The notes: generated from the sequence alone by a model not told the origin. A DNA stretch of 11,701 nucleotides from a virus (IMGVR_UViG_3300043418_000226), one strand, 5' to 3'; shown: positions 1-11,145, counted from the first letter of the stretch. Numbers and translations are program-made.

Positions 1-35
1 TACAAATTTATTTACACTTTTTTTTAATTTATTTT

Positions 36-127
36 TTGAATCTAATTTCCATCTCAGATGTTCACGGGATTACGATACATTACTGGTATAATTGCCACCA
101 ATAAAAAACCCCGAACTTAATCGGGGT
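36..127. repeat. 92-bp exact direct repeat, copy 1 (inter-cassette element E1 plus terminator)
   Basis: TTGAATCTAATTTCCATCTCAG...CCCCGAACTTAATCGGGGT at 36-127 is identical to 569-660 (offset 533); contains the CATTACTGGTAT half-site (TTACTGG at 80-86). Confidence 0.97.
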
Positions 128-131
128 TTTT
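103..131 (-). terminator. Intrinsic terminator T1
   Basis: AAAAACCCCGA-acttaa-TCGGGGTTTTT hairpin, 2 bp after the stop of 133..477; T-run on the minus strand (symmetric, possibly bidirectional). Confidence 0.85.
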
Positions 132-132
132 G

Positions 133-477
133 TTACTTTACTCTTAAGGTAGTGAAATGATAACCTTTACCAATCATTCCCTTTGCATCATGGTAAGCCA
201 ATGACATTGCTTGGTGTCTTTCACTTGATGTTTCAGAATCTTTACAACCAAAGTTAATACCCCACGTTAACATACATTCAATACCATAGTCAACCTCGAA
301 ATACTCTCTTGTCTTTTGTAGTGAATCTTGGTGTCTACCTTTTTTCTCGTTCCAACTACTTGGTCGGTGTGATAGATAAACAAAAAACATATTTAATGAA
401 TTTTGTGTAGGTCTACCTTTAGTTGACCAAAACCCCTTAGGGAAACTTTTTTTGTTACAATCTAATAAATTTTCCAT
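133..477 (-). CDS. Hypothetical phage protein (114 aa), single-gene cassette
   Basis: ORF bounded by its own Bacteroidota-type promoter (508-537) and terminator; no recognisable motif. Confidence 0.85.
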   Translation of the reverse strand: MENLLDCNKKSFPKGFWSTKGRPTQNSLNMFFVYLSHRPSSWNEKKGRHQDSLQKTREYFEVDYGIECMLTWGINFGCKDSETSSERHQAMSLAYHDAKGMIGKGYHFTTLRVK

Positions 478-507
478 TGTGTAAATGTGTTTGTGTTAAT
501 GATGGTA

Positions 508-537
508 CAAAGATATAACATTAATTTCGTTATACAA
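508..537 (-). promoter_or_regulatory. Bacteroidota-type sigma70 promoter
   Basis: Minus strand TTG (537-535)-N19-TATCTTTG (515-508), matching the -33/-7 TAnnTTTG consensus. Confidence 0.85.
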
Positions 538-568
538 TAATATTAACATTTATTTAACATTTATTTTC

Positions 569-660
569 TTGAATCTAATTTCCATCTCAGATGTTCACGG
601 GATTACGATACATTACTGGTATAATTGCCACCAATAAAAAACCCCGAACTTAATCGGGGT
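569..660. repeat. 92-bp exact direct repeat, copy 2 (element E2 plus terminator)
   Basis: Identical to 36-127; TTACTGG at 613-619. Confidence 0.97.
636..660 (-). terminator. Intrinsic terminator T2
   Basis: ACCCCGA-acttaa-TCGGGGT with an A-run on its left (U-run on the minus strand), just after the stop at 669. Confidence 0.8.
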
Positions 661-668
661 CATATAAA

Positions 669-884
669 TTACTTAAAGAACAAATCGTGTAGGGTTAACC
701 AAAACCCTCTCGTTACTTGTGTTGAATCGGGAACTCCACAACTCGGGTTTCCTTTAAAGTATTTTGTCGGTTCAATGTATCGACTACTTACTTGGAACTT
801 CGCCGACCATTCGTTAAAGGTCAAAGGTTTTTCAAAATTACTCAATTGTACACTCAATTGTTTTTGTGATGTTTCTACTGACAT
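669..884 (-). CDS. Hypothetical phage protein (71 aa, MSVETSQKQ...)
   Basis: The track start at 911 overlaps the promoter -7 element, so the second ATG (884) is used; it has a G-free leader and a downstream terminator. Confidence 0.75.
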   Translation of the reverse strand: MSVETSQKQLSVQLSNFEKPLTFNEWSAKFQVSSRYIEPTKYFKGNPSCGVPDSTQVTRGFWLTLHDLFFK

Positions 885-908
885 AATGTTAATGTTTAAA
901 TGATAGGA

Positions 909-934
909 CAAATGTACAAATTAATATAATACAA
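909..934 (-). promoter_or_regulatory. Bacteroidota-type promoter (variant)
   Basis: Minus-strand TACATTTG at 916-909; the TTGTA that aligns with the other -33 boxes lies only 15 nt away (short spacer), so the -33 assignment is uncertain. Confidence 0.6.
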
Positions 935-960
935 TCCTAATTTTATTTAACTTTTTTTTT

Positions 961-1078
961 CTGAAGACAACGCCCTGATCCAGCACGGTGCATGGTAGAT
1001 ATAATACTGGGATAACAGACATCCCCACAAATACCAGTAACATTTTCTCCATGCAGCACGGTCAAGATTCTTTTGGGC
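961..1078. repeat. Inter-cassette element E3
   Basis: ATACTGG (1004-1010) ... CCAGTAA (1034-1040), 23-bp spacer; shares CGCCCTGATCCAG with E5 and a 28-bp block with E6. Confidence 0.85.
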
Positions 1079-1106
1079 AAAAAAAACCCTCACATTTCTG
1101 TAAGGG
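1079..1106 (-). terminator. Intrinsic terminator T3
   Basis: Minus strand CCCUUACA-GAAA-UGUGAGGG-U-run; the G.U wobble works only on the minus strand. Confidence 0.85.
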
Positions 1107-1130
1107 AATTTTCTATCAACATAACATTCA

Positions 1131-1343
1131 CTAATTCATTATTTCGTATTGGTCTTCTTCGGGTATTACCGACAACTTTCTTCCGTTGTCCCACAATACT
1201 CCAATTTGTCCCATATCATCAACAAAGTTAATCGTTCCCATTTCGTTGGGTTCGACCGCATATTTGTCGTTCATTAAAATCATTTTGATTCTTTTACCTA
1301 CAAGTGGGTGACTTTGTCCACGTTTTAAAAAATTGTCTAACAT
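1131..1343 (-). CDS. DUF4314-family small protein (70 aa)
   Basis: Motif GKRIKMILMND...MGTINFVDDMGQIGVLWDNGRKLSVIPEED matches the recognisable DUF4314 pattern (GTV..VDD.G.I.V.WDNG..L.VI...D); by eye only. Confidence 0.8.
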   Translation of the reverse strand: MLDNFLKRGQSHPLVGKRIKMILMNDKYAVEPNEMGTINFVDDMGQIGVLWDNGRKLSVIPEEDQYEIMN

Positions 1344-1374
1344 AGTATAAATGTGTTAATGGTTAATGATGGTA

Positions 1375-1404
1375 CAAAGATATAACAATATTTCAATTAT
1401 ACAA
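1375..1404 (-). promoter_or_regulatory. Bacteroidota-type sigma70 promoter
   Basis: (T)TTG-N19-TATCTTTG on the minus strand. Confidence 0.85.
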
Positions 1405-1433
1405 ATTAAATGTTACTTTTTTTTGAATTATTT

Positions 1434-1556
1434 TCGAGTCAGATTCTGATGGGAAAACATATTACTGGTGTAAGACAACCCACGTGTAGTGTAAGACAAA
1501 TACCAGTAATGTATTAGGATACCGGCGACTCAAGATGGTGCCGAAATTCTATGGAC
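1434..1556. repeat. Inter-cassette element E4
   Basis: ATTACTGGT (1461-1469) ... ACCAGTAAT (1502-1510), 34-bp GG-to-CC spacer; left block TTATTTTCGAGTCnGATTCTGAnGG shared with E6. Confidence 0.85.
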
Positions 1557-1588
1557 AAAAAAAATCCCCACCCTTTCGAGTGAGGACT
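1557..1588 (-). terminator. Intrinsic terminator T4
   Basis: Minus strand GUCCUCACUC-GAAA-GGGUGGGGAU-U-run, with G.U wobbles valid only on the minus strand. Confidence 0.85.
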
Positions 1589-1611
1589 TTCCCCTTTGTA
1601 ACCTTTCAACC

Positions 1612-2136
1612 TTACCCCTCAACTATATATCTTGTTCCGTTTAAAGATAATTCCTTGATGTTTTCGATTTTCGGTGTGATAACCATTACTTTTTTGTCTT
1701 GGTCTTGTCTTGATGTTTCCGATACCTTAACCATATAACTTTCAAAAAGTTGTTTCTCGATTTCGTTACCCTCGAAAATAAATTCAGTGGTTGGTTTGAT
1801 TTCGTCAAAACGTTCAACCATTAGGTAGTGAGTGTTTTCGGTTTTGGTGTCTACTAATACACATTTTGAAATATGTTTTTTACCACTTGGAGCCATTGAT
1901 ACAAAATCCCCCTCTAAACCTTCTTTTTTCTCGTTTGAGTTTACTCTTGTTTCGTAGTCGTTACCGATTAGGAAATTAGTTTTTGAACGTTTTGTAATAA
2001 GGTTAAAATAAGGATTACCTGTTTTGTTCATTCTAACTTTTGTTTCCATTACGATATTAACAAAGGTAGATTTTTCTACATTGTTTAATAATTCGATTAA
2101 TTCAGTTTGTCCGATTGTTAAAACTTGATTTTTCAT
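1612..2136 (-). CDS. Hypothetical phage protein (174 aa)
   Basis: Long ORF with own promoter and terminator; TFVNI..ETKVRMNKTGNPY...G.DYE.RVN...KEG looks like a conserved phage family of unknown function (not verified by search). Confidence 0.9.
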   Translation of the reverse strand: MKNQVLTIGQTELIELLNNVEKSTFVNIVMETKVRMNKTGNPYFNLITKRSKTNFLIGNDYETRVNSNEKKEGLEGDFVSMAPSGKKHISKCVLVDTKTENTHYLMVERFDEIKPTTEFIFEGNEIEKQLFESYMVKVSETSRQDQDKKVMVITPKIENIKELSLNGTRYIVEG

Positions 2137-2175
2137 TTTGTGAGTGTTTTAAGTGTTATTGTTATTTTGATAGGT

Positions 2176-2207
2176 CAAAGATATAACATTAATTCCATTC
2201 CACCAAA
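2176..2207 (-). promoter_or_regulatory. Bacteroidota-type sigma70 promoter
   Basis: TTTG-N20-TATCTTTG on the minus strand. Confidence 0.88.
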
Positions 2208-2237
2208 TATTATTTAGTTTTTTTTTATTTTTTTTTT

Positions 2238-2346
2238 CGCCCTGATCCAGTTTTTTATTTACTGGGTTTTGGGGTCGGGTGTTTACCAAAGTAAAATACC
2301 AGTAACGTTTCCACCATGCAGCTCTGCGGAAGATTCTCCACTCCAT
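2238..2346. repeat. Inter-cassette element E5
   Basis: TTACTGG (2259-2265) ... CCAGTAA (2299-2305), 33-bp spacer; CCATGCAGCTCTGCGGAAGATT (2314-2335) is identical to 3227-3248. Confidence 0.85.
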
Positions 2347-2372
2347 AAAAAACCCCCGATAAAATCGAGGGT
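2347..2372 (-). terminator. Intrinsic terminator T5
   Basis: Minus strand ACCCUCGAU-uuu-AUCGGGGGU-U-run, 7 bp after the stop at 2380. Confidence 0.8.
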
Positions 2373-2379
2373 CTTTAAA

Positions 2380-2544
2380 TTATTCTTCGTTAATACATTC
2401 TTCACAGGCGTTACAACTGAAACAACCCGAACAACCGCAACCACTTTCGTCACGTGTCCCACAATCACAACAATCGTACATACTACCGCAATCGTATTCG
2501 TTGCCGTTTCTGTCTGTACCTAAATGTCCTTTATTTTCGCACAT
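2380..2544 (-). CDS. Cys-rich small protein (54 aa, 11 Cys), metal-binding candidate; not in the ORF track
   Basis: Hand translation MCENKGHLGTDRNGNEYDCGSMYDCCDCGTRDESGCGCSGCFSCNACEECINEE*; starts 4 nt after the stop of 2549..2773 and ends 7 nt before T5. Confidence 0.85.
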   Translation of the reverse strand: MCENKGHLGTDRNGNEYDCGSMYDCCDCGTRDESGCGCSGCFSCNACEECINEE

Positions 2545-2548
2545 AATA

Positions 2549-2773
2549 TTAGTCTTTACAATATTCCCATTTGATTACTTGGTCGAGTTTTATATGGTCA
2601 CCACCCCATCCGTTAGGTAATAATCTACCATTGAATTTTTGATAACTTGGAGGAATTGCCACGTTACCAAATAGGTCGGAATAGAACCCACGTTTGGTAA
2701 TAGTTTCAATCTTACCACGTATTTCTTTTTTAAATGTTACCATTATATCGACAAAAGGTGTAGGTGTTTCCAT
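2549..2773 (-). CDS. Hypothetical phage protein (74 aa)
   Basis: Third gene of a tightly packed 4-gene operon (TAA-T-ATG junction with 2775..2945). Confidence 0.85.
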   Translation of the reverse strand: METPTPFVDIMVTFKKEIRGKIETITKRGFYSDLFGNVAIPPSYQKFNGRLLPNGWGGDHIKLDQVIKWEYCKD

Positions 2774-2774
2774 A

Positions 2775-2945
2775 TTATCCGTGTATTAATTCTATTATAC
2801 TACTTTCACAAAGACTACATTCGTGTTCCACTGAACCCCCTTGTTCTATTTCGTCCAAACATAGTTGGTAAAATTCCATAATCTCACTTTTGTATTCGGG
2901 ATATAACCAAATTTGTTCATCCACGTATTTTTTTAAACGTTCCAT
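2775..2945 (-). CDS. Hypothetical acidic protein (56 aa); not in the ORF track
   Basis: MERLKKYVDEQIWLYPEYKSEIMEFYQLCLDEIEQGGSVEHECSLCESSIIELIHG*; fills the operon gap exactly. Confidence 0.8.
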   Translation of the reverse strand: MERLKKYVDEQIWLYPEYKSEIMEFYQLCLDEIEQGGSVEHECSLCESSIIELIHG

Positions 2946-2954
2946 AGTGTTAGA

Positions 2955-3047
2955 TTAAAAGGTTACTGAATAAATGATGTACCCAAAGATTAGGATTGAT
3001 ACTACTTTTAAAATGTTTGCAACTTGTTGTAAGGTTAATTTTTTCAT
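2955..3047 (-). CDS. Small membrane peptide (30 aa); not in the ORF track
   Basis: MKKLTLQQVANILKVVSILIFGYIIYSVTF*; first ATG after promoter 3077-3106 and its G-free leader; hydrophobic C-terminal half. Confidence 0.75.
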   Translation of the reverse strand: MKKLTLQQVANILKVVSILIFGYIIYSVTF

Positions 3048-3076
3048 AGTGTTTAAGTGTTTGATTAATGTGAGTA

Positions 3077-3106
3077 CAAAGATATAATTTTATTTTGATT
3101 ATACAA
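3077..3106 (-). promoter_or_regulatory. Bacteroidota-type sigma70 promoter
   Basis: TTG-N19-TATCTTTG on the minus strand. Confidence 0.85.
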
Positions 3107-3133
3107 GTTAAATTACAATTATTTTTAATTTAT

Positions 3134-3256
3134 TTTCGAGTCTGATTCTGAAGGAAGTGGTGTCGTTTTTTCAGGGTTACATTACTGGGACCGCCGATAC
3201 GAGAACGAATACCAGTAACATTTTCTCCATGCAGCTCTGCGGAAGATTATCAACAT
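3134..3256. repeat. Inter-cassette element E6
   Basis: TTACTGG (3182-3188) ... CCAGTAA (3212-3218), 23-bp spacer; shares blocks with E3, E4, E5 and E7. Confidence 0.88.
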
Positions 3257-3286
3257 AAAAAAACCCCTTACTTTCGTAAAGGGTTT
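3257..3286 (-). terminator. Intrinsic terminator T6
   Basis: Minus strand AAACCCUUUAC-GAAA-GUAAGGGGUUU-U-run; identical to T7. Confidence 0.88.
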
Positions 3287-3514
3287 AATATATGAATACA
3301 AATCGCTCAGTCTTTCCTGATGTCAATCTTGATATAGGATTAGGTTAATGATAATTTAAGGAACCCCACCTATTCCATTTATGTGTATATAACAATTTTA
3401 AAGGGAGAAACACATAAACTTATCCTATTCGTCAGACTTGAAGATATCCAAGTACCATATAAGGGATTCCTCCCCTCAAAAAAAAGAATGATTCAGAAAA
3501 TCATCTCAATTGTA

Positions 3515-3805
3515 TCAATTTAGACACAAATGGTTTTGTACTTCCACGTATTCGGTGTACTCTCCATTTATCTCTACTACTTTTTTATCGTTAAAATCGT
3601 TAACAAATCTCTCACGTGAATAGTCGCCCTCTCCACTCTCCATACATTTGTACATTAACCCCTCACGTATTTGGTAACTCGATGTTATTAGTCCGTTAGG
3701 TATTCCACCTATCTTTTCAAACGAGGTTAATTGAATGTCAACAGACAACAATGTTAACTCGTCAAAATTCATTTCTTTCAAAGGTACTCCGTAAAATGTT
3801 TTCAT
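3515..3805 (-). CDS. Hypothetical phage protein (96 aa)
   Basis: First ATG after promoter 3838-3869; the only called gene ending in TGA (see findings). Confidence 0.8.
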   Translation of the reverse strand: MKTFYGVPLKEMNFDELTLLSVDIQLTSFEKIGGIPNGLITSSYQIREGLMYKCMESGEGDYSRERFVNDFNDKKVVEINGEYTEYVEVQNHLCLN

Positions 3806-3837
3806 AGTGTGAATGTGTTATTGATTATTTGATGGTA

Positions 3838-3869
3838 CAAAGATATAACATTAGTTTCATTATACCAAA
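3838..3869 (-). promoter_or_regulatory. Bacteroidota-type sigma70 promoter
   Basis: TTTG-N20-TATCTTTG on the minus strand. Confidence 0.88.
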
Positions 3870-3899
3870 TTTATTTTCACTTTTTTTTAATTTATTTTT

Positions 3900-4009
3900 C
3901 TGAAGTGGACCGGCGACGGGGTCAGGGAACATATTACTGGTATTTGTTTTAGGTGTGAGGAATACCAGTAATATAAATGCGGTGATCAGGTGCGGAAGAT
4001 TCTCTTCAT
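3900..4009. repeat. Inter-cassette element E7
   Basis: Perfect 14-bp inverted repeat ATATTACTGGTATT (3931-3944) / AATACCAGTAATAT (3961-3974); 24 bp between GG and CC. Confidence 0.9.
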
Positions 4010-4041
4010 AAAAAAACCCCTTACTTTCGTAAAGGGTTTTT
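4010..4041 (-). terminator. Intrinsic terminator T7
   Basis: Same hairpin as T6, 8 bp after the stop at 4049. Confidence 0.88.
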
Positions 4042-4048
4042 GTGGTTT

Positions 4049-4837
4049 CTAATTAAAACACATACTTCGGGTAGTGTTTCTAATGTAGTGAGTTTTGATA
4101 AATTCCTCAATGAATATAAGTTTAGTTTCAATTAAACCCTTTCCGTATCGTTGTAGTCTAAAGTGTCCACTAACATTGAAACTACCTACTCCGATGTGTT
4201 TAACATTCCAAAGACTATCTACTCGGTACACTCCTAAATCGGTTTCATTCTTAATTAATGAACCTTTGATTACTGAACCACTTTTAGTGTTCGGATGGAT
4301 GTAAGTATATTCAACTTTGTCCTTTGATAAATCTAAATAAACTACCATAGGTAAAAGGTTATTCATAACTTTCATACTTAATAAGTAAATCAAAGGAATA
4401 TTCGGAACTTGACCATTAACGTATTCTTGTTTGAACCCATCACGAATTAAACCCTCCAAATGTAATGGTATATCTCTATTGAAACAAGGTGTTACCACAA
4501 ACCCCTTACCAACTTCAAAAATCCAACCGAAAGTGTATATCTCTCCTCTATATCCAATGTGATAAAATATCTCGAATATACCATTTGACTTCTTTACTTC
4601 GATAACTGAATTGTCAATATTAGGATAAAACAAAAGATACTTTCTATCACTTAACAATTTAACCACCTCATTTAATGAAGACGTTAATGTCTTATCATTT
4701 GTTGGGTCAATGTTTAACTTAACATTTCTTGAATACTTTTGTGATTTGTCAGATAGTACTAATTTTTTGTACTCGTTTAATCTCTCAGGATATTGATTAA
4801 TTAAATCGATAATCATGTGTGTGTTTTTGATTTTCAT
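4049..4837 (-). CDS. Hypothetical phage protein (262 aa) with C-terminal VSGHFRLQRYGKG...KLIFIEEF motif
   Basis: The track start (4897) lies inside the promoter, so ATG 4837 after the G-free leader is used. The C-terminal motif resembles a V.GH(W/F)R.Q..G...K.I.I motif I recall from phage proteins of unknown function. Confidence 0.85.
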   Translation of the reverse strand: MKIKNTHMIIDLINQYPERLNEYKKLVLSDKSQKYSRNVKLNIDPTNDKTLTSSLNEVVKLLSDRKYLLFYPNIDNSVIEVKKSNGIFEIFYHIGYRGEIYTFGWIFEVGKGFVVTPCFNRDIPLHLEGLIRDGFKQEYVNGQVPNIPLIYLLSMKVMNNLLPMVVYLDLSKDKVEYTYIHPNTKSGSVIKGSLIKNETDLGVYRVDSLWNVKHIGVGSFNVSGHFRLQRYGKGLIETKLIFIEEFIKTHYIRNTTRSMCFN

Positions 4838-4867
4838 AATATAAGTGTTTTGTGTTATTTGATGGGT

Positions 4868-4897
4868 CAAAGATATAACAATTATTTTATTATACAA
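4868..4897 (-). promoter_or_regulatory. Bacteroidota-type sigma70 promoter
   Basis: TTG-N19-TATCTTTG on the minus strand. Confidence 0.85.
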
Positions 4898-4930
4898 TAC
4901 AAATATTAATTTATTTTAATATTTTTTTTA

Positions 4931-5030
4931 CTGATGGTGAAGATCATCCACAGTGGGACGGGGTATATGTTACTGGGACTCCCCTACATAGAGTACCCCC
5001 TCCCCCCTGCCTGTATCCCCCCTTAAATAG
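4931..5030. repeat. Terminal inter-cassette element E8 (half-site only) merging into C-tracts
   Basis: GTTACTGGGA at 4969-4978, at the same position relative to the promoter as in the other elements; no CCAGTAA partner. Confidence 0.65.
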
Positions 5031-5177
5031 GTCAAAAACCCTATGTCAAAAGGGGGGGACACTTCCGTGAGTGAAATTTTTTCTGGTTTTTGTTCCCGTA
5101 TTGGACTTTTGTCTCCATTAAAAACTTATAAAAACTTTTTATCCCCCCTAAACAGAAAAAAAAATTTTCTATATTTT

Positions 5178-5209
5178 TTTGGAAAATTGGTATTTTTTTG
5201 TTAAATTTG
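5178..5209 (+). promoter_or_regulatory. Bacteroidota-type sigma70 promoter of the HNH gene
   Basis: TTTG (5178-5181)-N20-TAAATTTG (5202-5209). Confidence 0.75.
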
Positions 5210-5213
5210 CACC

Positions 5214-6674
5214 ATGGGACTAATACAATATAACACACTGTTTTATAAGACCGACCACAATAAGGTTTTAGAACTACACTCACGGAAGAATACTAATAAA
5301 GAAATTAGTGACAAACTTAATATAACTCTTTATATGGTGGAAAAGATTCTATCCTATTATAACCTCACTCCTGCGAAGAGGATGGACAAGATTGACCATC
5401 GAGTTGTAATCGACTTATATGATAAACATAAAAAGATATCTAAGGTTGCAAAGATTTTGGAGATAGAGGAATATATGGTCGATAAGATTTTAATCCATAA
5501 TAACATTACCAAAAGGTCGGTAACCCTTAAGCTCGATTCAATAGAGGTTATTAGGGATTACTTGGAGTGTCGGGACGTTAATGTGGTTGCACAAAAGTAC
5601 AATGTATCTGTATCTCCCATTATTAAGATTCTAAAAGATAATGGAATTAAAAGAAAGAAAAATCCCGACGCACATAAACGAATTATTAAGAATGGTCATG
5701 GGGTTAAAGTAGAGGTTAATCATGTAATTCAACTATATAAGGAACTCGGTACCATTGTTAGTGTCGGTAAAGAATTAAAGATTAGATCTAGTAAAGTTCG
5801 TTCTATTCTTTTGGGTAATAACGTGGAGTTAAATGTTACTCTCAAATATATTGAGATTGGAGATGTGTTTGGTTATCTTACGGTCATCAAAGAAATCGAA
5901 CCCAAATATAGCACAAGTGGTGTTAGTAAGAAGATGTTATTATGTGAATGTAAATGTGGGAACACTGTGGAACGTGCATCTTCTACACTTAGAAAAATGA
6001 GTGGGTTGAAATCCTGTGGGTGTTATTTGGAAGAACGTAAACAGAAGACTGAGGAATTAAGGATTAGGAAGAAACTTGAACACGAAAAGAAATTAAAAGA
6101 ACGGGAGATTGTTCGTATTGAAAAAGAGAGAAAGAAAAATGAGTATAAACAAAAACACGGATATAAAAAATATAATATTGGTGATAAGAAAAACAGATTT
6201 ACCATTACGGGTATTGAAGGTAAACATCCCAATAAGGTGATATCCGTTATATGTGAGTGTGGGACCGAGAAGGCGTTGAAATATCAATCATTTTTTCAAT
6301 CTAAGTCCTGTGGATGTCTTCAGGTAGAACGTTCAACCACACACGGACACTCAAGTAAAAAAAATCCAGAAAGACGTAGGTGGCACGATAGATGGAAGGG
6401 AATGATGAAACGTTGTTATAACCCTAAAATGCACGCGTACTCAAACTATGGTGGAAGAGGGATTACAGTATGTGATAGATGGAAAGAACCAAATGGTGTG
6501 GGGAGTCAAAATTATTATGAAGATATTCATAATATACTGGGACCCCAACCAAGTTCCGAACATTCATTAGATAGAATGGATAATGATGGTATGTATGAAA
6601 TCACCAATATGAGATGGGCAACAAATAGTGAACAGACAAAAAACCAAAGGAGAAACATCAAGTCTAAAACCTAA
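5214..6674 (+). CDS. HNH-family (homing-type) endonuclease with four N-terminal HTH-like repeats and two Cys-rich Zn modules
   Basis: C-terminal WKGMMKRCYNPK...YGGRGITVCDRW...SLDRMDNDG.YE..N.RWAT..EQ..N.R is the typical phage HNH variant; two IGD..G.LT...C.C.CG....SCGC modules; four ~45-50-aa repeats ending MVEKIL / MVDKIL / PIIKIL / KVRSIL. Confidence 0.85.
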   Translation: MGLIQYNTLFYKTDHNKVLELHSRKNTNKEISDKLNITLYMVEKILSYYNLTPAKRMDKIDHRVVIDLYDKHKKISKVAKILEIEEYMVDKILIHNNITKRSVTLKLDSIEVIRDYLECRDVNVVAQKYNVSVSPIIKILKDNGIKRKKNPDAHKRIIKNGHGVKVEVNHVIQLYKELGTIVSVGKELKIRSSKVRSILLGNNVELNVTLKYIEIGDVFGYLTVIKEIEPKYSTSGVSKKMLLCECKCGNTVERASSTLRKMSGLKSCGCYLEERKQKTEELRIRKKLEHEKKLKEREIVRIEKERKKNEYKQKHGYKKYNIGDKKNRFTITGIEGKHPNKVISVICECGTEKALKYQSFFQSKSCGCLQVERSTTHGHSSKKNPERRRWHDRWKGMMKRCYNPKMHAYSNYGGRGITVCDRWKEPNGVGSQNYYEDIHNILGPQPSSEHSLDRMDNDGMYEITNMRWATNSEQTKNQRRNIKSKT

Positions 6675-6712
6675 ATAAAAATTTCTGGTATTTTTGGAAA
6701 AATTCGAAGGTG

Positions 6713-6719
6713 TATTTAT
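6713..6719 (+). promoter_or_regulatory. TATTTAT motif (candidate phage-specific late promoter); also at 6969, 7111, 7634, 9743, 10854, 10869
   Basis: Recurs 4-33 nt upstream of plus-strand start codons, often right after a terminator; the AT-rich background means enrichment needs testing. Confidence 0.5.
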
Positions 6720-6735
6720 TTCTAAAATTCAATCC

Positions 6736-6846
6736 ATGAGTAAATCAGTTAAAAAACAACCAAGAAAGAAAAGTGCACGTTCTCAGAAGAAAACAAAAAC
6801 ACTTATCGCCAAGAACGTAGAAATCCTACGTAGACTTTCGAACTAA
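6736..6846 (+). CDS. Small basic peptide (36 aa, 13 K/R); not in the ORF track
   Basis: MSKSVKKQPRKKSARSQKKTKTLIAKNVEILRRLSN*, bracketed by TATTTAT and a terminator. Confidence 0.7.
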   Translation: MSKSVKKQPRKKSARSQKKTKTLIAKNVEILRRLSN

Positions 6847-6850
6847 CAGG

Positions 6851-6875
6851 AACCTCCCCTTCGGGAGGTTTTTTT
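6851..6875 (+). terminator. Intrinsic terminator
   Basis: AACCTCCC-cttc-GGGAGGTT followed by a T-run. Confidence 0.85.
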
Positions 6876-6979
6876 AATGGAACCCTCTCAACGATATTTT
6901 TAATTATCCCCCTTCAACTATCGTTCAAACGTTATCGTAGATTTTTCTTATCTCACTGATATTCAGGATATTTATTAAT

Positions 6980-7078
6980 ATGAAAAGACTATTAGTAAAA
7001 CTCAGACAAATCTCAAGACTACACGGTTCATTGGGGAACATTATCCCACCAAGACATTGGAACAAATGTCCGTATTAA
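6980..7078 (+). CDS. Small basic peptide (32 aa); not in the ORF track
   Basis: MKRLLVKLRQISRLHGSLGNIIPPRHWNKCPY*; TATTTAT 4 nt upstream, terminator directly after the stop. Confidence 0.55.
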   Translation: MKRLLVKLRQISRLHGSLGNIIPPRHWNKCPY

Positions 7079-7106
7079 AAAATCCTTCCCTTCGGAAGGA
7101 TTTTTT
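7077..7106 (+). terminator. Intrinsic terminator
   Basis: AATCCTTCC-cttc-GGAAGGATT followed by a T-run. Confidence 0.85.
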
Positions 7107-7124
7107 GTTATATTTATTAACTGT

Positions 7125-7535
7125 ATGAAATTAACTGATATTATATTCGAAGCGGTTTCCGATTTGTTCTCCAATAAAGAACGTAAGGGAATCATGTCCG
7201 AAAAGGAGTGGAAGGACATTGACGATAAGAACAGTCCTGAGAACATTAAGAAGAAAATTAAACATGTCCGTGGACTCTCTGATGAATGTCGTCAGTACGC
7301 CATGGATAACCATAGTGATTGGGTTTCTTCTATTGGGAGTGGAAAGGTCTCTAATTTGGATTTACACCCCGATTTAAAGAAGAAAATCTCCGAGGAGGGT
7401 CTACCATCAGGTTTTAGTATGGGAGTCGATAAGAACGGTTATTTTATCCATACACACAGGGCTAGAAGTAAGTCTAATGAAAACCCTTCGGGTTTCACTC
7501 AGAAGGAAATTAAATTTGTGGATTCCACGGGATAA
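7125..7535 (+). CDS. Hypothetical phage protein (136 aa) with MKLTDIIFE leader
   Basis: TATTTAT upstream; C-terminal GYFIHTHRARSKS...IKFVDSTG looks like a conserved motif; function unknown. Confidence 0.85.
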   Translation: MKLTDIIFEAVSDLFSNKERKGIMSEKEWKDIDDKNSPENIKKKIKHVRGLSDECRQYAMDNHSDWVSSIGSGKVSNLDLHPDLKKKISEEGLPSGFSMGVDKNGYFIHTHRARSKSNENPSGFTQKEIKFVDSTG

Positions 7536-7645
7536 AATGAACCTCGTATGCCGGTATGAAAAACGGGGGTCGGGCGCCGGGAGAGGAAATTTGATAATGT
7601 CATTTATATTTTGTACATTTCATTGTTAATATATATTTATTTACT

Positions 7646-7990
7646 ATGGGATTGTTTAAATGGACTAAAGGTCGTCAGAAAGGTTGTCATTATGAAAAGT
7701 TTACCCTATGGTACTTTAGAGTATTGAAGTTTGGATTTGATTCGTATATCTTAAAATACGAACCGAAACAATATCTTCCTACACACACTGATCCCGTTGA
7801 AAATGGAAAACACTATAGAATGAACATCGGATTTGGTAAGTCCATCTTTGAATGTGAACAAATTATCCTTAAATTTAAAATAACGGATTACTTTACCGTT
7901 AATATCTTTCGACCTGACCTTTATAGACACAACCTGTTGTCCCAAACAAAAACCTTTAAACTATCCTTCGGTTTTGTAAAATACAATTAA
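7646..7990 (+). CDS. 2OG-Fe(II) oxygenase / cupin-like protein (114 aa)
   Basis: YILKYEP...LPTHTDPV..GKHYRMNI (HxD) and a distal His in FRPDLYRHNL, typical of the double-stranded beta-helix facial triad. Confidence 0.65.
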   Translation: MGLFKWTKGRQKGCHYEKFTLWYFRVLKFGFDSYILKYEPKQYLPTHTDPVENGKHYRMNIGFGKSIFECEQIILKFKITDYFTVNIFRPDLYRHNLLSQTKTFKLSFGFVKYN

Positions 7991-8012
7991 TTTAAAAATA
8001 AATTAAAAAATA

Positions 8013-8044
8013 TTTGGCAGTAACGATAATATTGTTTTACTTTG
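8013..8044 (+). promoter_or_regulatory. Bacteroidota-type promoter (near-consensus)
   Basis: TTTG (8013-8016)-N20-TTACTTTG (8037-8044), one mismatch to TAnnTTTG, followed by an A/C-rich leader to ATG 8072. Confidence 0.55.
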
Positions 8045-8071
8045 TACCCAACAAATAAAAACAATGTCTAT

Positions 8072-8656
8072 ATGTCAAAACTACTTGAAAAGGCTAACAA
8101 AAAACTCTTAGTAAGAAACATGTTTACCGAAGATGACATGGATTTACCAATGGGTAAATTTTTAATGAAGTCTTACACACAATGTACACCAAACAAATAT
8201 GGTGACCTATTCTCCAAAAAAGTTATTTACGATTCAAAAAACATTTTGAAGGGGTTATCGGCTTCCCTTAATAGAGGGGATTGTCATATGGGATTTGAGA
8301 AATACTTCGAATGTAAAGTATCTTACCTTAATAAATCGGGAAAATATTCAATTACCAATATTCGTAATTGGCAAGATTTCGATTACTTCATTTTATGTTT
8401 TGTGGATACGGGTGATAATTTTAAACCTTACTTTTATTGTGTTCCAAAAGAAACTATCACAAACAATCCTTGTATCACACTTACCGGTATGAACAATACG
8501 AGTGATATTAACAGTAAAAACACTTATGTTGGTACACGTACAAGTGTCAACAACGTCGACCTAAATTGGTTATTTAAAAACAGTTCAACATTAAAAGGAA
8601 CCTCATACAAACATTTAGAGGATTTCATTAAAAAATCACGTAAAAATTTAAAATAA
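8072..8656 (+). CDS. PD-(D/E)xK restriction-endonuclease-like protein (194 aa)
   Basis: NRGD...KYFECKVS (D...ExK) followed by NIRNWQDFDYFILC; the track TTG start at 8042 overlaps the promoter, so ATG 8072 is used. Confidence 0.65.
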   Translation: MSKLLEKANKKLLVRNMFTEDDMDLPMGKFLMKSYTQCTPNKYGDLFSKKVIYDSKNILKGLSASLNRGDCHMGFEKYFECKVSYLNKSGKYSITNIRNWQDFDYFILCFVDTGDNFKPYFYCVPKETITNNPCITLTGMNNTSDINSKNTYVGTRTSVNNVDLNWLFKNSSTLKGTSYKHLEDFIKKSRKNLK

Positions 8657-8663
8657 ATATATT

Positions 8664-9692
8664 ATGCCAACTAAACAATTAGTAAAGAAAACAACAAAAA
8701 AATCTGTTGTTACTACACCGTCAGTTAAAGTACCTACGGTAAAAAACACCACAACGAAAAAAACTAATAAGTACAATTTGAGAACCGAATCTTGGTCTTA
8801 TGAGAAATTTGCCAAATTGGAACCTTACGTAAGAAATCGTGACGTTGAACCTCGTATACCTAAAGTGGTAAAACTTCTTGCTAAGAAATACATACCAACA
8901 CACTCCATTGTTATTGTTGGTAATGTAACAAAACCATTTGCCAAATATAAAAAGGGAGATAAGTTTCGTTTAGATGGTAATACAAGAGCCGAAGCTTTTA
9001 AAATTCGACCTGAATTAATTCCTGAAGTCCCATTCCATGTGATTATGATGGATGTTTCTTCAAAAGAGGAAGCCGATGAAATTTATTATGCAATTGATAG
9101 TAGTGATTCGGTTGAGACTTCTTCACATAAAATTACCGGATACCTTAGAGAACGTGAATACACTGCATTAAGTAAGACAATCAAAGAAGGTAAATTCAAA
9201 ACTGCATTAGATAACGCGTGTCGTTACGGTCATAACAATGACGGGTTATATCTTCAAACTGCACCTTTTGAGGATAAATTAGACTTTTTCTGGAATGAAT
9301 TGATTCATATTGATAAATGGAAATTGGGGAACATGGACAATAGGTCTAAAACAAAAATGTCAGCAAATGTGCTTACATCACTTTTACTTGTTGCCAAGAA
9401 ATATGGGGTAAACCATAAACGTTTTGACCTCTTAATTGAAAACTTCAAAAATGAACTTACCGTAACTAACAATTCAACCGAGGTTGATGGTGTTCATTAT
9501 GTGAATACGACTTTATTTACCAAAAACGCTTTGGTTTGGAAAAACACCGGTAGAACCAATGCATTTACATTGATTCATTCCATATTGTATTCGTTCGATA
9601 AATTTATCTTAAACGAAAACATTAAGAAGGGTTCGAAATTACCTAATGAGAAAAAATTAACCGAGTTTTATCAAAATTATCGTTCAATATAA
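8664..9692 (+). CDS. ParB/Srx-like (DG-x-x-R) domain protein (342 aa)
   Basis: RNRD...RLDGNTRAEAF...EEADEIYYAIDS resembles the ParB/sulfiredoxin-fold DGxxR signature; K/T/V-rich disordered N-terminus; starts 7 nt after the nuclease stop. Confidence 0.6.
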   Translation: MPTKQLVKKTTKKSVVTTPSVKVPTVKNTTTKKTNKYNLRTESWSYEKFAKLEPYVRNRDVEPRIPKVVKLLAKKYIPTHSIVIVGNVTKPFAKYKKGDKFRLDGNTRAEAFKIRPELIPEVPFHVIMMDVSSKEEADEIYYAIDSSDSVETSSHKITGYLREREYTALSKTIKEGKFKTALDNACRYGHNNDGLYLQTAPFEDKLDFFWNELIHIDKWKLGNMDNRSKTKMSANVLTSLLLVAKKYGVNHKRFDLLIENFKNELTVTNNSTEVDGVHYVNTTLFTKNALVWKNTGRTNAFTLIHSILYSFDKFILNENIKKGSKLPNEKKLTEFYQNYRSI

Positions 9693-9700
9693 TTTCAAAG

Positions 9701-9730
9701 AAAACCCCACCCACCACGGTGGGGTTTTTT
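9701..9730 (+). terminator. Intrinsic terminator
   Basis: AAAACCCCACC ... GGTGGGGTTTT followed by a T-run. Confidence 0.88.
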
Positions 9731-9754
9731 ATTTTAAATCAGTATTTATATCAT

Positions 9755-10354
9755 ATGAAGATTCTAATAACCGAAAGTCAATTACAACGTGTCAGTGAAC
9801 AAGAAACGACTGAGGCGGTTCGTTATGACTTTAATGACCCGACCAAACAGAAGAAATCAAAGAAGAAAATGGATTACAAATTAATAATGGCTAACCCCAA
9901 TGAAAATGTATTCTATAAAAAAGTCGGGGGATTTAGTTACTTCTACAACGATTCTTCCGAAGAAGGGGAAATTATTATTAAGGTTGTTGATGATGTTAAT
10001 AAAATTGCTGCGGCTCACGGAGCTTTCTTTATGGTTGATGCCGATAATTTTGAAGCAACGTCTCCTTTTGTTTATCCCGAATATAGAAGACAAGGGATAG
10101 CAATTCAAATGTATAAAATGGCTTTGGACTTTGGTAATTTATTATCAGGTGAAGCACAATCACAGTATGCCGAGGCACTTTGGAAAAAATTATACGATGT
10201 GTTCCCTAATCATATGGTTGCGTACAATTCACAAACAAGAAAAGAATACGAAATAACTAAAGATGAGAAGGGTGACTTTATTATTCCATCTGAACCAGAA
10301 ATGGACATTTACGGTGAAAAAACTTTTATCCAACTCAAACTATATAAAAACTAA
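9755..10354 (+). CDS. GNAT-family acetyltransferase-like protein (199 aa) with MKILITESQL leader
   Basis: Acetyl-CoA motif A FVYPEYRRQGIAIQMYK and downstream LSGEAQSQYAEALWKKL; the track start (9719) is inside the terminator, so ATG 9755 after TATTTAT is used. Confidence 0.8.
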   Translation: MKILITESQLQRVSEQETTEAVRYDFNDPTKQKKSKKKMDYKLIMANPNENVFYKKVGGFSYFYNDSSEEGEIIIKVVDDVNKIAAAHGAFFMVDADNFEATSPFVYPEYRRQGIAIQMYKMALDFGNLLSGEAQSQYAEALWKKLYDVFPNHMVAYNSQTRKEYEITKDEKGDFIIPSEPEMDIYGEKTFIQLKLYKN

Positions 10355-10403
10355 ATGGAATCCCTGGTGAGGAGATTTAGGGGGTTAAATTGACAAATAG
10401 ACT

Positions 10404-10736
10404 ATGAAACTAATAAACATTTTAAACGAATCAGATAATTTTGACGAATTTGCGGAAAAACGTTTATCGGGGGCAACTAAAATAACCAATAACGCACACG
10501 AAAAAGGTGGAGTATCTATGTTGACCTATCACCATTTTAAAGTTAAACTTCCATATTATAAGAAAGCTTCCGAAGGAAAGTTTAATATTGAGGAGGGTAA
10601 AATTGAATTTGAGAAACAATTACAAAAACTTTGTAAATTAACTAAGAATATTAACATGGACCAAATCGATTTTCAAAAAACTATGGGTATAGTTGAAGTT
10701 TTGGGAGAATTAATTATTAAAAATAAATCGTTATAA
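10404..10736 (+). CDS. Hypothetical phage protein (110 aa) with MKLINILNE leader
   Basis: Clean ORF downstream of the GNAT; no functional motif recognised. Confidence 0.85.
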   Translation: MKLINILNESDNFDEFAEKRLSGATKITNNAHEKGGVSMLTYHHFKVKLPYYKKASEGKFNIEEGKIEFEKQLQKLCKLTKNINMDQIDFQKTMGIVEVLGELIIKNKSL

Positions 10737-10750
10737 CGATTATAAGATAC

Positions 10751-10835
10751 CCCCGGTTTGAAGACCGGACTTAGGACCGGGACTAGTTACATAATCCCGT
10801 TGGGACAAGAATTCGCTACTCTTGTCCCTTTTTTT
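10751..10835 (+). ncRNA. Candidate structured RNA ending in a terminator
   Basis: Three consecutive hairpins: CCGGT/ACCGG (10753-10768), CGGGA/TCCCG (10778-10799), GGGACAAGA/TCTTGTCCC plus T7 (10802-10835); a GC-rich island in AT-rich intergenic DNA. Confidence 0.4.
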
Positions 10836-10908
10836 ATTTAACGGATTAACTTATATTTATTTTCTATGTATTTATAGATAATAACAAAAAGATTTAAAAA
10901 GAATTATA

Positions 10909-11145
10909 ATGGTAAGTGCTTCAGCATCAAAAACAACTTCGGACAACGCTATCACAGGTTTAACCTATGTGAATAGTGTTATCACAGGGGCATCGGCAAA
11001 CGGTCTTTATAGTGTTATCATCGAAGGTAACTACATGAACGATACAGTGGCAGATATACTAAGAACAACATATGGTTACAAAGTGACACCTAAATCCGTT
11101 GACATGGGGTCATACGTAAGATATCAAATAAGCTGGTTAGACTAA
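10909..11145 (+). CDS. Hypothetical phage protein (78 aa)
   Basis: Two TATTTAT motifs upstream; small-residue-rich composition; no motif recognised. Confidence 0.8.
   Translation: MVSASASKTTSDNAITGLTYVNSVITGASANGLYSVIIEGNYMNDTVADILRTTYGYKVTPKSVDMGSYVRYQISWLD

Follow-up and report, generated by a model that had tools for sequence, protein, structure and literature searches.

Recurrent short words in the terminator-promoter gaps of a phage early-gene array and their possible roles

The left part of an 11,701-nt stretch of viral DNA (IMGVR_UViG_3300043418_000226; the whole analysed stretch is hereafter called the window) is an array of small genes, in the gaps of which a non-coding element recurs that carries the 7-nt word TTACTGG, its inverted copy CCAGTAA, or both. 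Why are such words kept between the early genes of a phage, and does anything read them? The initial annotation of this DNA had taken the elements for recombination or protein-binding sites in an exchangeable library of genes, and had likened them to integron cassette arrays as well as to the promoter early stem-loops (PeSLs) of T4-type phages. In this paper, we have examined the elements in the window and in a set of related loci. They are best described as PeSL-type boundary modules with an added spacer of lineage-specific recognition words, belonging to a jumbo phage of Bacteroidota that is probably T4-type. As to the role of the words, we tentatively favour a model in which they are docking sites for a lineage-specific DNA-binding factor, while the modules as a whole are the substrate of homologous cassette shuffling.

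Words and elements in the gaps between early units

TTACTGG/CCAGTAA occurs in 12 exact copies in the window, compared with 1.58 ± 1.26 in shuffled sequences, and a count of at least 12 was reached in 0/200 shuffles. The excess reported in the initial annotation is thus borne out, and the expectation of ~0.5 copies given there was somewhat low. Together with one ATACTGG at 1004, the exact words (positions in Table 1) make 13 copies, all of which lie within eight gap elements, E1 to E8, and none is found in the window right of 4976, so that both the (T/A)TACTGG core ascribed to every element and the absence of copies from the right half hold true. The inverted pair is confined to five elements (E3-E7), as had been noted, and E1, E2 and E8 contain the promoter-side word alone.

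The genes of the left half lie on the minus strand and form seven self-contained early units, as claimed earlier. Each unit starts with a Bacteroidota-type promoter of the form TTTG-N19-TAnnTTTG (TTTG-N19-TAtcTTTG in the window), and its end is marked by a GC hairpin with a T-run behind it on the minus strand; the -7 box, the reverse complement of CAAAGATATAA, is letter-identical at 508, 1375, 2176, 3077, 3838 and 4868, with a variant at 909. An element is present in 7/7 terminator-promoter gaps, and the eighth, a half element, lies at the strand switch, ahead of the first promoter. No element is found at the gene junctions inside the units, nor in those gaps of the right half, with its plus-strand genes, that contain a terminator. 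As had been suspected, base 1 is not the end of the array: in L122, a metagenomic contig 92% identical to the window, it goes on with a further promoter and two small genes, which are followed by a terminator and by the whole of a ninth element.

In the direction of the genes, each gap consists of an intrinsic terminator, an imperfect palindrome of 70-130 nt that bears the words, an A-rich tract and the promoter. The T-run of the terminator is followed by a short block related to AGAATCTTCCGC and then by the terminator-side word, which reads TTACTGGTATT in 5/5 full elements, the bases of the opposite arm being variable. A variable interior of about 23-34 nt separates this word from the promoter-side CCAGTAA(T), beyond which another variable stretch, usually with CTTCAG or CATCAG at its end, leads to the A-rich tract and the -33 box. 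This anatomy supports the earlier description of the element as separate from promoter and terminator, with fixed words and a variable interior. The elements are GC-richer than their surroundings (0.38 vs 0.33), and 4 of the 7 GATC sites of the window fall within their 867 bp (Fisher p=9e-4); in five lineages GATC is enriched 12-20 fold inside the elements and under-represented outside. GCGC is likewise almost confined to elements, and in one related locus, L134, GATC is absent from the entire 8,926 bp.

Several familiar classes of element were considered and set aside. A miniature inverted-repeat transposable element does not fit, as the conserved inverted words are central rather than terminal and no flanking target-site duplication was seen; the GG-to-GC spacing within the words is, by inspection, too short for a sigma-54-like box; and a C-rich, rut-like spacer that loads Rho as a back-up terminator is contradicted by the lack of any C over G skew. 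No tRNA or tmRNA was found in the window.

Conservation, lineage specificity and confinement of the words

Identity with L122 is 90-99% in the elements, 88-99.7% in coding DNA and 88-100% (mostly 94-100%) in promoters and terminators, and all 12 exact words are unchanged, save two changes in co-scored flanking bases. As the words stay unchanged while the elements drift like coding DNA, purifying selection is visible only on the words and perhaps on small end blocks. This pattern bears on the possibility that the spacer is functionless palindromic DNA, tolerated in untranscribed places, copied along with the modules and homogenised by gene conversion, which would keep the arms alike and make lineages look different. 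Outside the words, the rate at which the elements evolve is indeed close to that of coding DNA, and the elements are mosaics of each other. A stretch of 92 bp is exactly the same in E1 and E2, and conversion is visible there: the left part of E1 in the window has been converted to the E2 type, for the copies in L122 still differ towards the promoter side. Furthermore, elements occur only where a terminator makes untranscribed space, and tandem copying would automatically give them a uniform orientation. Such an origin is nevertheless unlikely, given that the words are invariant while their neighbours vary, that the layout persists over at least six diverged lineages, and that GATC is enriched in the elements and avoided elsewhere.

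No near-identical phage was found among the GenBank phages. Loci of relatives were found in IMG/VR and JGI metagenomes by means of the 114-aa protein of the array and of a ParB/Srx-like protein, and were examined mostly as 20-kb pieces; their 114-aa proteins are 70-81% identical to that of the window. A common gap layout was observed in all of them, including the post-terminator block (consensus CCACAGATTTC) and CTTCAG near the A-rich tract. The word pairs of the relatives are TTGTGTGGCA/TGCCACACAA, TTGTTTCGCA/TGCGAAACAA, TTCTGTGGC/GCCACAGAA and GTTATTGAGCA/TGCTCAATAAC, in addition to TTACTGGAAT, which is mostly direct. By lineage, the terminator-side word and its partner are TTACTGG(TATT) and CCAGTAA in the window and L122; TTGT[G/T/C]TGGCA and TGCCA[C/A]ACAA in L125/L121, L130/L136 and L138; TTGTTTCGCA and TGCGAAACAA in L131; TT[C/T]TGTGGC and GCCAC(AGAA) in L126-129, L135 and L137 (records G002 and G003); and GTTATTnnGCA and TGCTCAATAAC in L134; L132/L133 carry T[T/A]ACTGGAAT, almost always as direct copies (21 sense, 1 inverted). 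The degenerate positions of these six distinct but related word types resemble those of a binding motif, and by their shared features, a TT start and a T/G-rich sense strand, the words form a graded family. The whole set has changed, both arms together, within a short evolutionary distance. Their number, orientation and spacing vary as well: lone words stand at E1, E2, E8 and L125:1549-1748; L125 combines a distal word with a compact palindrome, as well as direct plus inverted triplets, and L134 is its mirror image; and an extra word lies 10-15 nt upstream of the -33 box in L133 and L134.

When the collection was scanned for the word pair alone, more than 120 single chance matches came up and the result was uninformative; a longer pattern based on E3 and E6 gave no match. 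A host repeat, or a mimic of a clustered regularly interspaced short palindromic repeat (CRISPR), was also considered, as the 22-bp palindrome of the L125 lineage matches seven bacterial contigs. It was rejected: L138 is a mis-binned phage array, in whose metagenome-assembled genome (MAG) the word clusters lie on the phage contig alone, and the other matches are single or tandem operator-like palindromes in unrelated contexts. In a contig of a Prevotella MAG (L141:1013-1135), tandem 22-bp units resembling TTGTTTGGCAATTGCCAAACAA adjoin a gene for an HU-HIG DNA-binding protein, and similar single palindromes are present in further Bacteroidota contigs; these are probably unrelated operator or iteron sites.

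The initial annotation had suggested that related genomes be scanned for the motif, and this was done in G002, the record behind L126 (286,785 bp, 86% complete), which was searched whole. Its word-loop-word pattern was found in about 20 places, all between 142,967 and 165,833 (23 kb of 287 kb), and a control pattern once; the pattern is not scattered over the record and is confined to a single array. G002 is T4-type and encodes a T4 Gp23-type capsid protein (E=1e-64). The 8-mer GTATTACA follows the array closely: 23/27 copies in G002 lie inside it (142,446-165,284), 23/23 of these on the sense strand, and in L125, L130 and L131 as well as in G002 it is found in the loops of hairpins, immediately behind terminators and close to the ends of genes. 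Neither GTATTACA nor the loop word TATTAC is present in the window, where GGTATT after the terminator-side word may be the counterpart. Loop lengths in G002 fall into two classes, 15-17 and 23-26 nt, about 8-9 nt apart, and the word spacings in the window are 30/31 and 40/41; helical phasing of half sites was rejected as an account of this bimodality, which is equally explained by an inserted extra word.

The loop motif raises the question of a later-acting promoter or operator module, in which the word and a GTATT box would be read by a phage-modified RNA polymerase. The order of word, GTATT(ACA) box and inverted word is fixed and sense-oriented, GTATTACA is also found 22-33 nt upstream of some start codons in L125, and there is an analogy in T4, the early genes of which often have upstream middle promoters. 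However, the spacing between word and box is just 1-8 nt, unlike that of known two-part promoters; GTATTACA is array-confined in G002 and missing from the window; no match to MotCF, the C-terminal domain of MotA, as a sign of a MotA-type activator was obtained in G002, in a search without positive control; and the probable late boxes of the right-half genes (TATTTAT) differ from the words. We consider such a module very unlikely.

Shuffling of cassettes and proposed reading of the words

That the cassettes move is evident from the comparison with relatives. A single breakpoint could be mapped: the 262-aa gene of the window corresponds to an unrelated 91-aa gene in L122, and the break lies inside the A-run and stem of the terminator beside E7. 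The cassette of the 114-aa gene is flanked by an exact direct repeat of terminator plus half element, 92 bp long in the window and 69 bp in L122, which runs through the word and does not end there, and repeats of 26-45 bp flank the same gene in L131, L133 and L134. Homologous genes stand in differing order in L125, L130, L131 and L134. The claim that cassettes are exchangeable between relatives is thereby supported; as for the proposed comparison of order and breakpoints, the order proved to be permuted between lineages, whereas the mapped break fell in the terminator and not in the words. In PeSLs, exchange takes place by homologous recombination within the composite of promoter and terminator and yields mini-circles (PMC2839356, PMC4122927), and the cassettes here appear to behave as described for them. 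The 114-aa protein is conserved far above its neighbours and contains conserved Cys and His residues; its gene (133-477, minus strand), which has differing neighbourhoods in relatives and two copies in L131 (327-668 and 2627-2899), looks like a mobile, important early gene.

The integron-like, dedicated site system that the initial annotation had envisaged fares less well. In such a system, attC-like folded sites or HUH-nicked stem-loop origins would excise and insert cassettes, in agreement with the inverted cores of 7-10 nt around a variable interior at every cassette border, with an internal stem mismatch conserved in relatives, and with the very mobility of the cassettes. In addition, the loops of relatives hold nCGTATTAC, which resembles NANTATTAC, the nick motif of CRESS-type (circular Rep-encoding single-stranded) Rep origins, a likeness that is a lead and not a test. 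However, no recombinase is present in the window, and the suggested search for recombinases and HUH nucleases returned nothing in G002 and G003: integrase (PF00589 Phage_integrase), Resolvase and Y1_Tnp (PF01797) had no match at E<=0.01, and Viral_Rep (PF02407) and Gemini_AL1 (PF00799) had none above the family cut-off, the best Viral_Rep candidate reaching 11.5 bits (E=0.08) vs a cut-off of 26. Nor are recombinase or nuclease families found among 99 array proteins of relatives, which match only DUF4314, DUF932, DUF3846, DUF4241 and two marginal families; DUF4314 is the sole convincing family match of the array genes in the window. Moreover, the mapped break and the repeats around the 114-aa cassette involve the terminator, every cassette has its own promoter and terminator, and the loops of the window lack the TATTAC word. 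The integron and HUH analogy thus fails, as the defining features of these systems are not found in the window, G002 or G003, and we regard a dedicated system as highly improbable. Scarcely more probable is a variant in which the words, the sense-only loop motif and the stem mismatch are folded single strands read by an unrecognised phage nuclease or recombinase, as parts of a virus-borne cassette exchange system; if it were true, an integron-like or rolling-circle-like system would move self-expressing anti-defence cassettes at defined sites.

In the model that we tentatively favour, the region is a hyperplastic array of early genes in an uncultured jumbo phage, probably of T4 type, with a Bacteroidota host. 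Its gaps are PeSL-type modules of intrinsic terminator, A-rich tract and host sigma-A promoter, with the spacer added before the A-rich tract, and constraint on this spacer is limited to the short words, i.e. TTACTGG, which is extended to TTACTGGTATT on the terminator side and inverted on the promoter side. A lineage-dependent factor with sequence specificity, which may be phage-encoded or phage-adapted, would dock on these words in duplex DNA, and would mark or insulate the borders of strongly transcribed early units, or tune their promoters. The repeated modules would at the same time offer homology patches to a T4-type recombination machinery, by which cassettes could be duplicated, converted, replaced and reordered. 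The anatomy of the gaps, the conservation and lineage specificity of the words, their confinement to the array and coupling to terminator-promoter gaps, and the traces of recombination were observed directly; both the binding of a protein to the words and the effect of that binding are what we infer from the pattern. If a lineage-specific factor does read the words, that factor would give access, at one point, to the entire early programme of a group of freshwater jumbo phages of Bacteroidota, and a regulator and tens of its sites would have shifted specificity together over short evolutionary distances.

The words might instead be the arms of a hairpin, in RNA (from read-through or delayed-early transcription) or in single-stranded or cruciform DNA. 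A factor would read the stem and the loop motif of this hairpin, which could act in processing or antitermination, for instance, or as a barrier to exonucleases. The arms are complementary in every lineage despite the sequence change. In G002, the base next to the stem co-varies (G-C 5, A-T 3, T-A 3 of 15; p=0.003), and G-T exceeds A-C mismatches by 21 to 9 in the sense direction of the stem. The loops hold the conserved, sense-only GTATTACA in four lineages, of which GGTATT in the window looks like the counterpart; one mismatch, at stem position 4 or 5, persists in nearly all compact palindromes of the L125 group; and the fold z-score goes down to -7 (E7). On the other hand, there is no promoter to transcribe the element, and an efficient-looking terminator stands directly before it. 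Rfam 15 gave only sub-threshold terminator-like matches, none of them over the words or the interior of an element. A strand-specific RNA was rejected, since folding favours the antisense strand in the window lineage and mostly the sense strand in L125 and L126, the pooled mismatches of the palindrome include G-T and A-C in balanced numbers (67 vs 55), and composition is strand-symmetric, so that a one-strand RNA does not fit. Overall covariation is not significant (109/500 shuffles as high), and the half elements and the direct-repeat lineage L133 lack a partner arm. In the window, 3/5 full elements (E3, E5 and E6) could form a stem of just 6-7 bp, with a loop of about 23-33 nt, and no partner exists for the conserved TATT by which the terminator-side word is extended, a conservation that pairing cannot explain. 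This evidence on covariation, mismatches, strand and stem favours recognition on duplex DNA, and we regard a hairpin as a serious but less probable alternative.

Docking by a factor has difficulties of its own. The joint change of both arms between lineages fits base pairing at least as well as docking, and the variable stem position of G002 is complementary in 11/15 copies (p=0.003), while the strictly sense-oriented GTATTACA of the relatives points to a strand-specific process. The distance from word to -7 box is variable (83-105 nt). In the array of G002, promoters preceded by a terminator almost always have an element and promoters directly after a gene have none; promoter activity as such does therefore not require the words. 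No DNA-binding family was found among the array genes and no binding protein was identified. Of two candidate readers, the first is a 486-aa HNH endonuclease (phrog_374, E=5e-48) encoded at 5214-6674 on the plus strand, which adjoins the array boundary, has about four tandem helix-turn-helix (HTH)-like modules and two Cys-rich repeats in its N-terminus, and has a host-type promoter and almost no leader. Its gene has no homologue in G002, a further point against docking, and is missing at the corresponding place in L121; it was thus rejected as the reader and is probably a free-standing homing nuclease. The second, the ParB/Srx-like gene at 8664-9692, was rejected as well, as it adjoins the array in the window and L121 lineages alone and has no HTH or significant Pfam match.

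The features of the array are collected in Table 1. The 224 bp from the E6-side terminator to the stop codon of the 96-aa gene (3291-3514) contain no convincing open reading frame, are the least conserved part against L122 (83% identity, with gaps), and may be what is left of a cassette. Among coding segments, conservation in that comparison is lowest (88% nucleotide identity) for the gene of a Cys-rich, acidic protein of 54 aa (2380-2544, minus strand). The strand-switch region at 4981-5200 contains long C and G tracts next to a lone promoter-side word, as does L125:1549-1748, and this layout is kept in L125, where the identity of nearby proteins is only 50%. In the right part of the window (6700-10910), (G)TATTTAT boxes stand 7-35 nt upstream of the plus-strand start codons at about 6713, 7105, 7633, 9742 and 10868, and represent a candidate late or middle promoter motif of this phage.

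Table 1. Elements, promoters, terminators and genes of the early array, with positions in the window
Feature	Position	Strand	Remark
E1, half element, promoter-side word only (TTACTGG 80-86 on +)	36..107	-	36-127 identical to 569-660
Terminator of 114-aa gene	104..131	-	
114-aa gene, most conserved array gene	133..477	-	no family match
Host-type early promoter TTTG-N19-TAtcTTTG	508..539	-	
E2, half element, word 613-619	569..640	-	
Terminator of 71-aa gene	640..661	-	
71-aa gene	669..884	-	no family match
Variant early promoter TTGT-N-TAcaTTTG	909..938	-	read from sequence
E3, full element, ATACTGG 1004-1010 and CCAGTAA 1034-1040	958..1078	-	
Terminator	1087..1106	-	
70-aa DUF4314 gene	1131..1343	-	
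Early promoter	1375..1405	-	
E4, full element, words 1462-1468 and 1503-1509	1430..1556	-	spacing 41
Terminator	1557..1588	-	G-U pair possible only in minus-strand RNA; read from sequence
174-aa gene	1612..2136	-	paralogues in relatives
Early promoter	2176..2207	-	
E5, full element, words 2259-2265 and 2299-2305	2232..2348	-	spacing 40
Terminator	2347..2373	-	read from sequence
Four-gene unit (54, 74, 56 and about 30 aa)	2380..3047	-	no internal elements
Early promoter	3077..3108	-	
E6, full element, words 3182-3188 and 3212-3218	3130..3256	-	spacing 30
Terminator	3261..3286	-	
96-aa gene	3515..3805	-	
Early promoter	3838..3869	-	
E7, full element, words 3934-3940 and 3965-3971	3896..4010	-	14-bp perfect inverted repeat
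Terminator	4011..4037	-	homology with L122 stops within
262-aa gene, first cassette of array	4049..4837	-	unrelated 91-aa gene there in L122
Early promoter of first unit	4868..4899	-	
E8, half element at strand switch, word 4970-4976, then C/G tracts	4925..5040	-	like L125 1549-1748

Comparison with known systems

With integron attC sites, the elements share inverted 7-nt cores around a variable interior, placed at every cassette border of a one-directional array; on the other hand, no integrase was found here, every cassette is equipped with a promoter and a terminator of its own, the mapped break falls outside the core, and some sites are half sites. The likeness to HUH rolling-circle origins is the nCGTATTAC in the loops of some relatives, as opposed to a window without the TATTAC loop word and to the lack of any Rep above the cut-off in G002 and G003. 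The KorB OB sites of RK2 and the p4 sites of phi29 resemble the words as many copies of a short site at variable distance upstream of a set of promoters. In those systems one regulator reads all the sites, which are compact palindromes with fixed half-site spacing, whereas the spacing here ranges from 2 to about 45 nt and the reader protein is putative.

Repetitive extragenic palindromic (REP) sequences and the bacterial interspersed mosaic elements (BIMEs) which they form are likewise species-specific short palindromic words, found in inverted pairs with variable linkers, outside genes and beside terminators. Roles in insulation, in the binding of topoisomerase or nucleoid proteins, and in recombination have been proposed for them. 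Each REP is a hairpin by itself, with a conserved tetranucleotide on its 5' side, and owes its spread over the genome to the REP-associated tyrosine transposase (RAYT, of the Y1 type), whereas the words here stay within one array and the relatives G002 and G003 gave no match to a Y1 transposase.

The early-gene arrays of large phages are a place of gain and loss of host-takeover and anti-defence genes, here with members of DUF4314, DUF932 and DUF3846, and it is with PeSLs that the present locus has most in common, in support of the analogy drawn at the outset. PeSLs consist of a terminator stem-loop, an AT-rich tract and a host-type early promoter between small orphan genes, and are located in the hyperplastic region of T4-type genomes (Arbiol et al. 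2010, PMC2839356; Comeau et al. 2014, PMC4122927). This composite is found in all seven gaps here, with the extra spacer of 70-130 nt in each, and eight copies lie within 5 kb of the window. In both cases the copies are linked to insertion, deletion and replacement of cassettes, for which short shared homology suffices, and the motifs differ among phage groups. The modules described here are set apart by a Bacteroidota -33/-7 promoter, by words that differ as a set from one closely related lineage to the next, and by the GC-richer, GATC-enriched imperfect palindrome, with its 1-3 invariant words, that separates the stem-loop from the AT-rich tract. Even on a minimal reading, the modules carry the PeSL shuffling model over from enterobacterial and vibrio T4-like phages to the jumbo phages of Bacteroidota, and they provide a simple sequence signature by which the plastic region may be found in metagenomic contigs.

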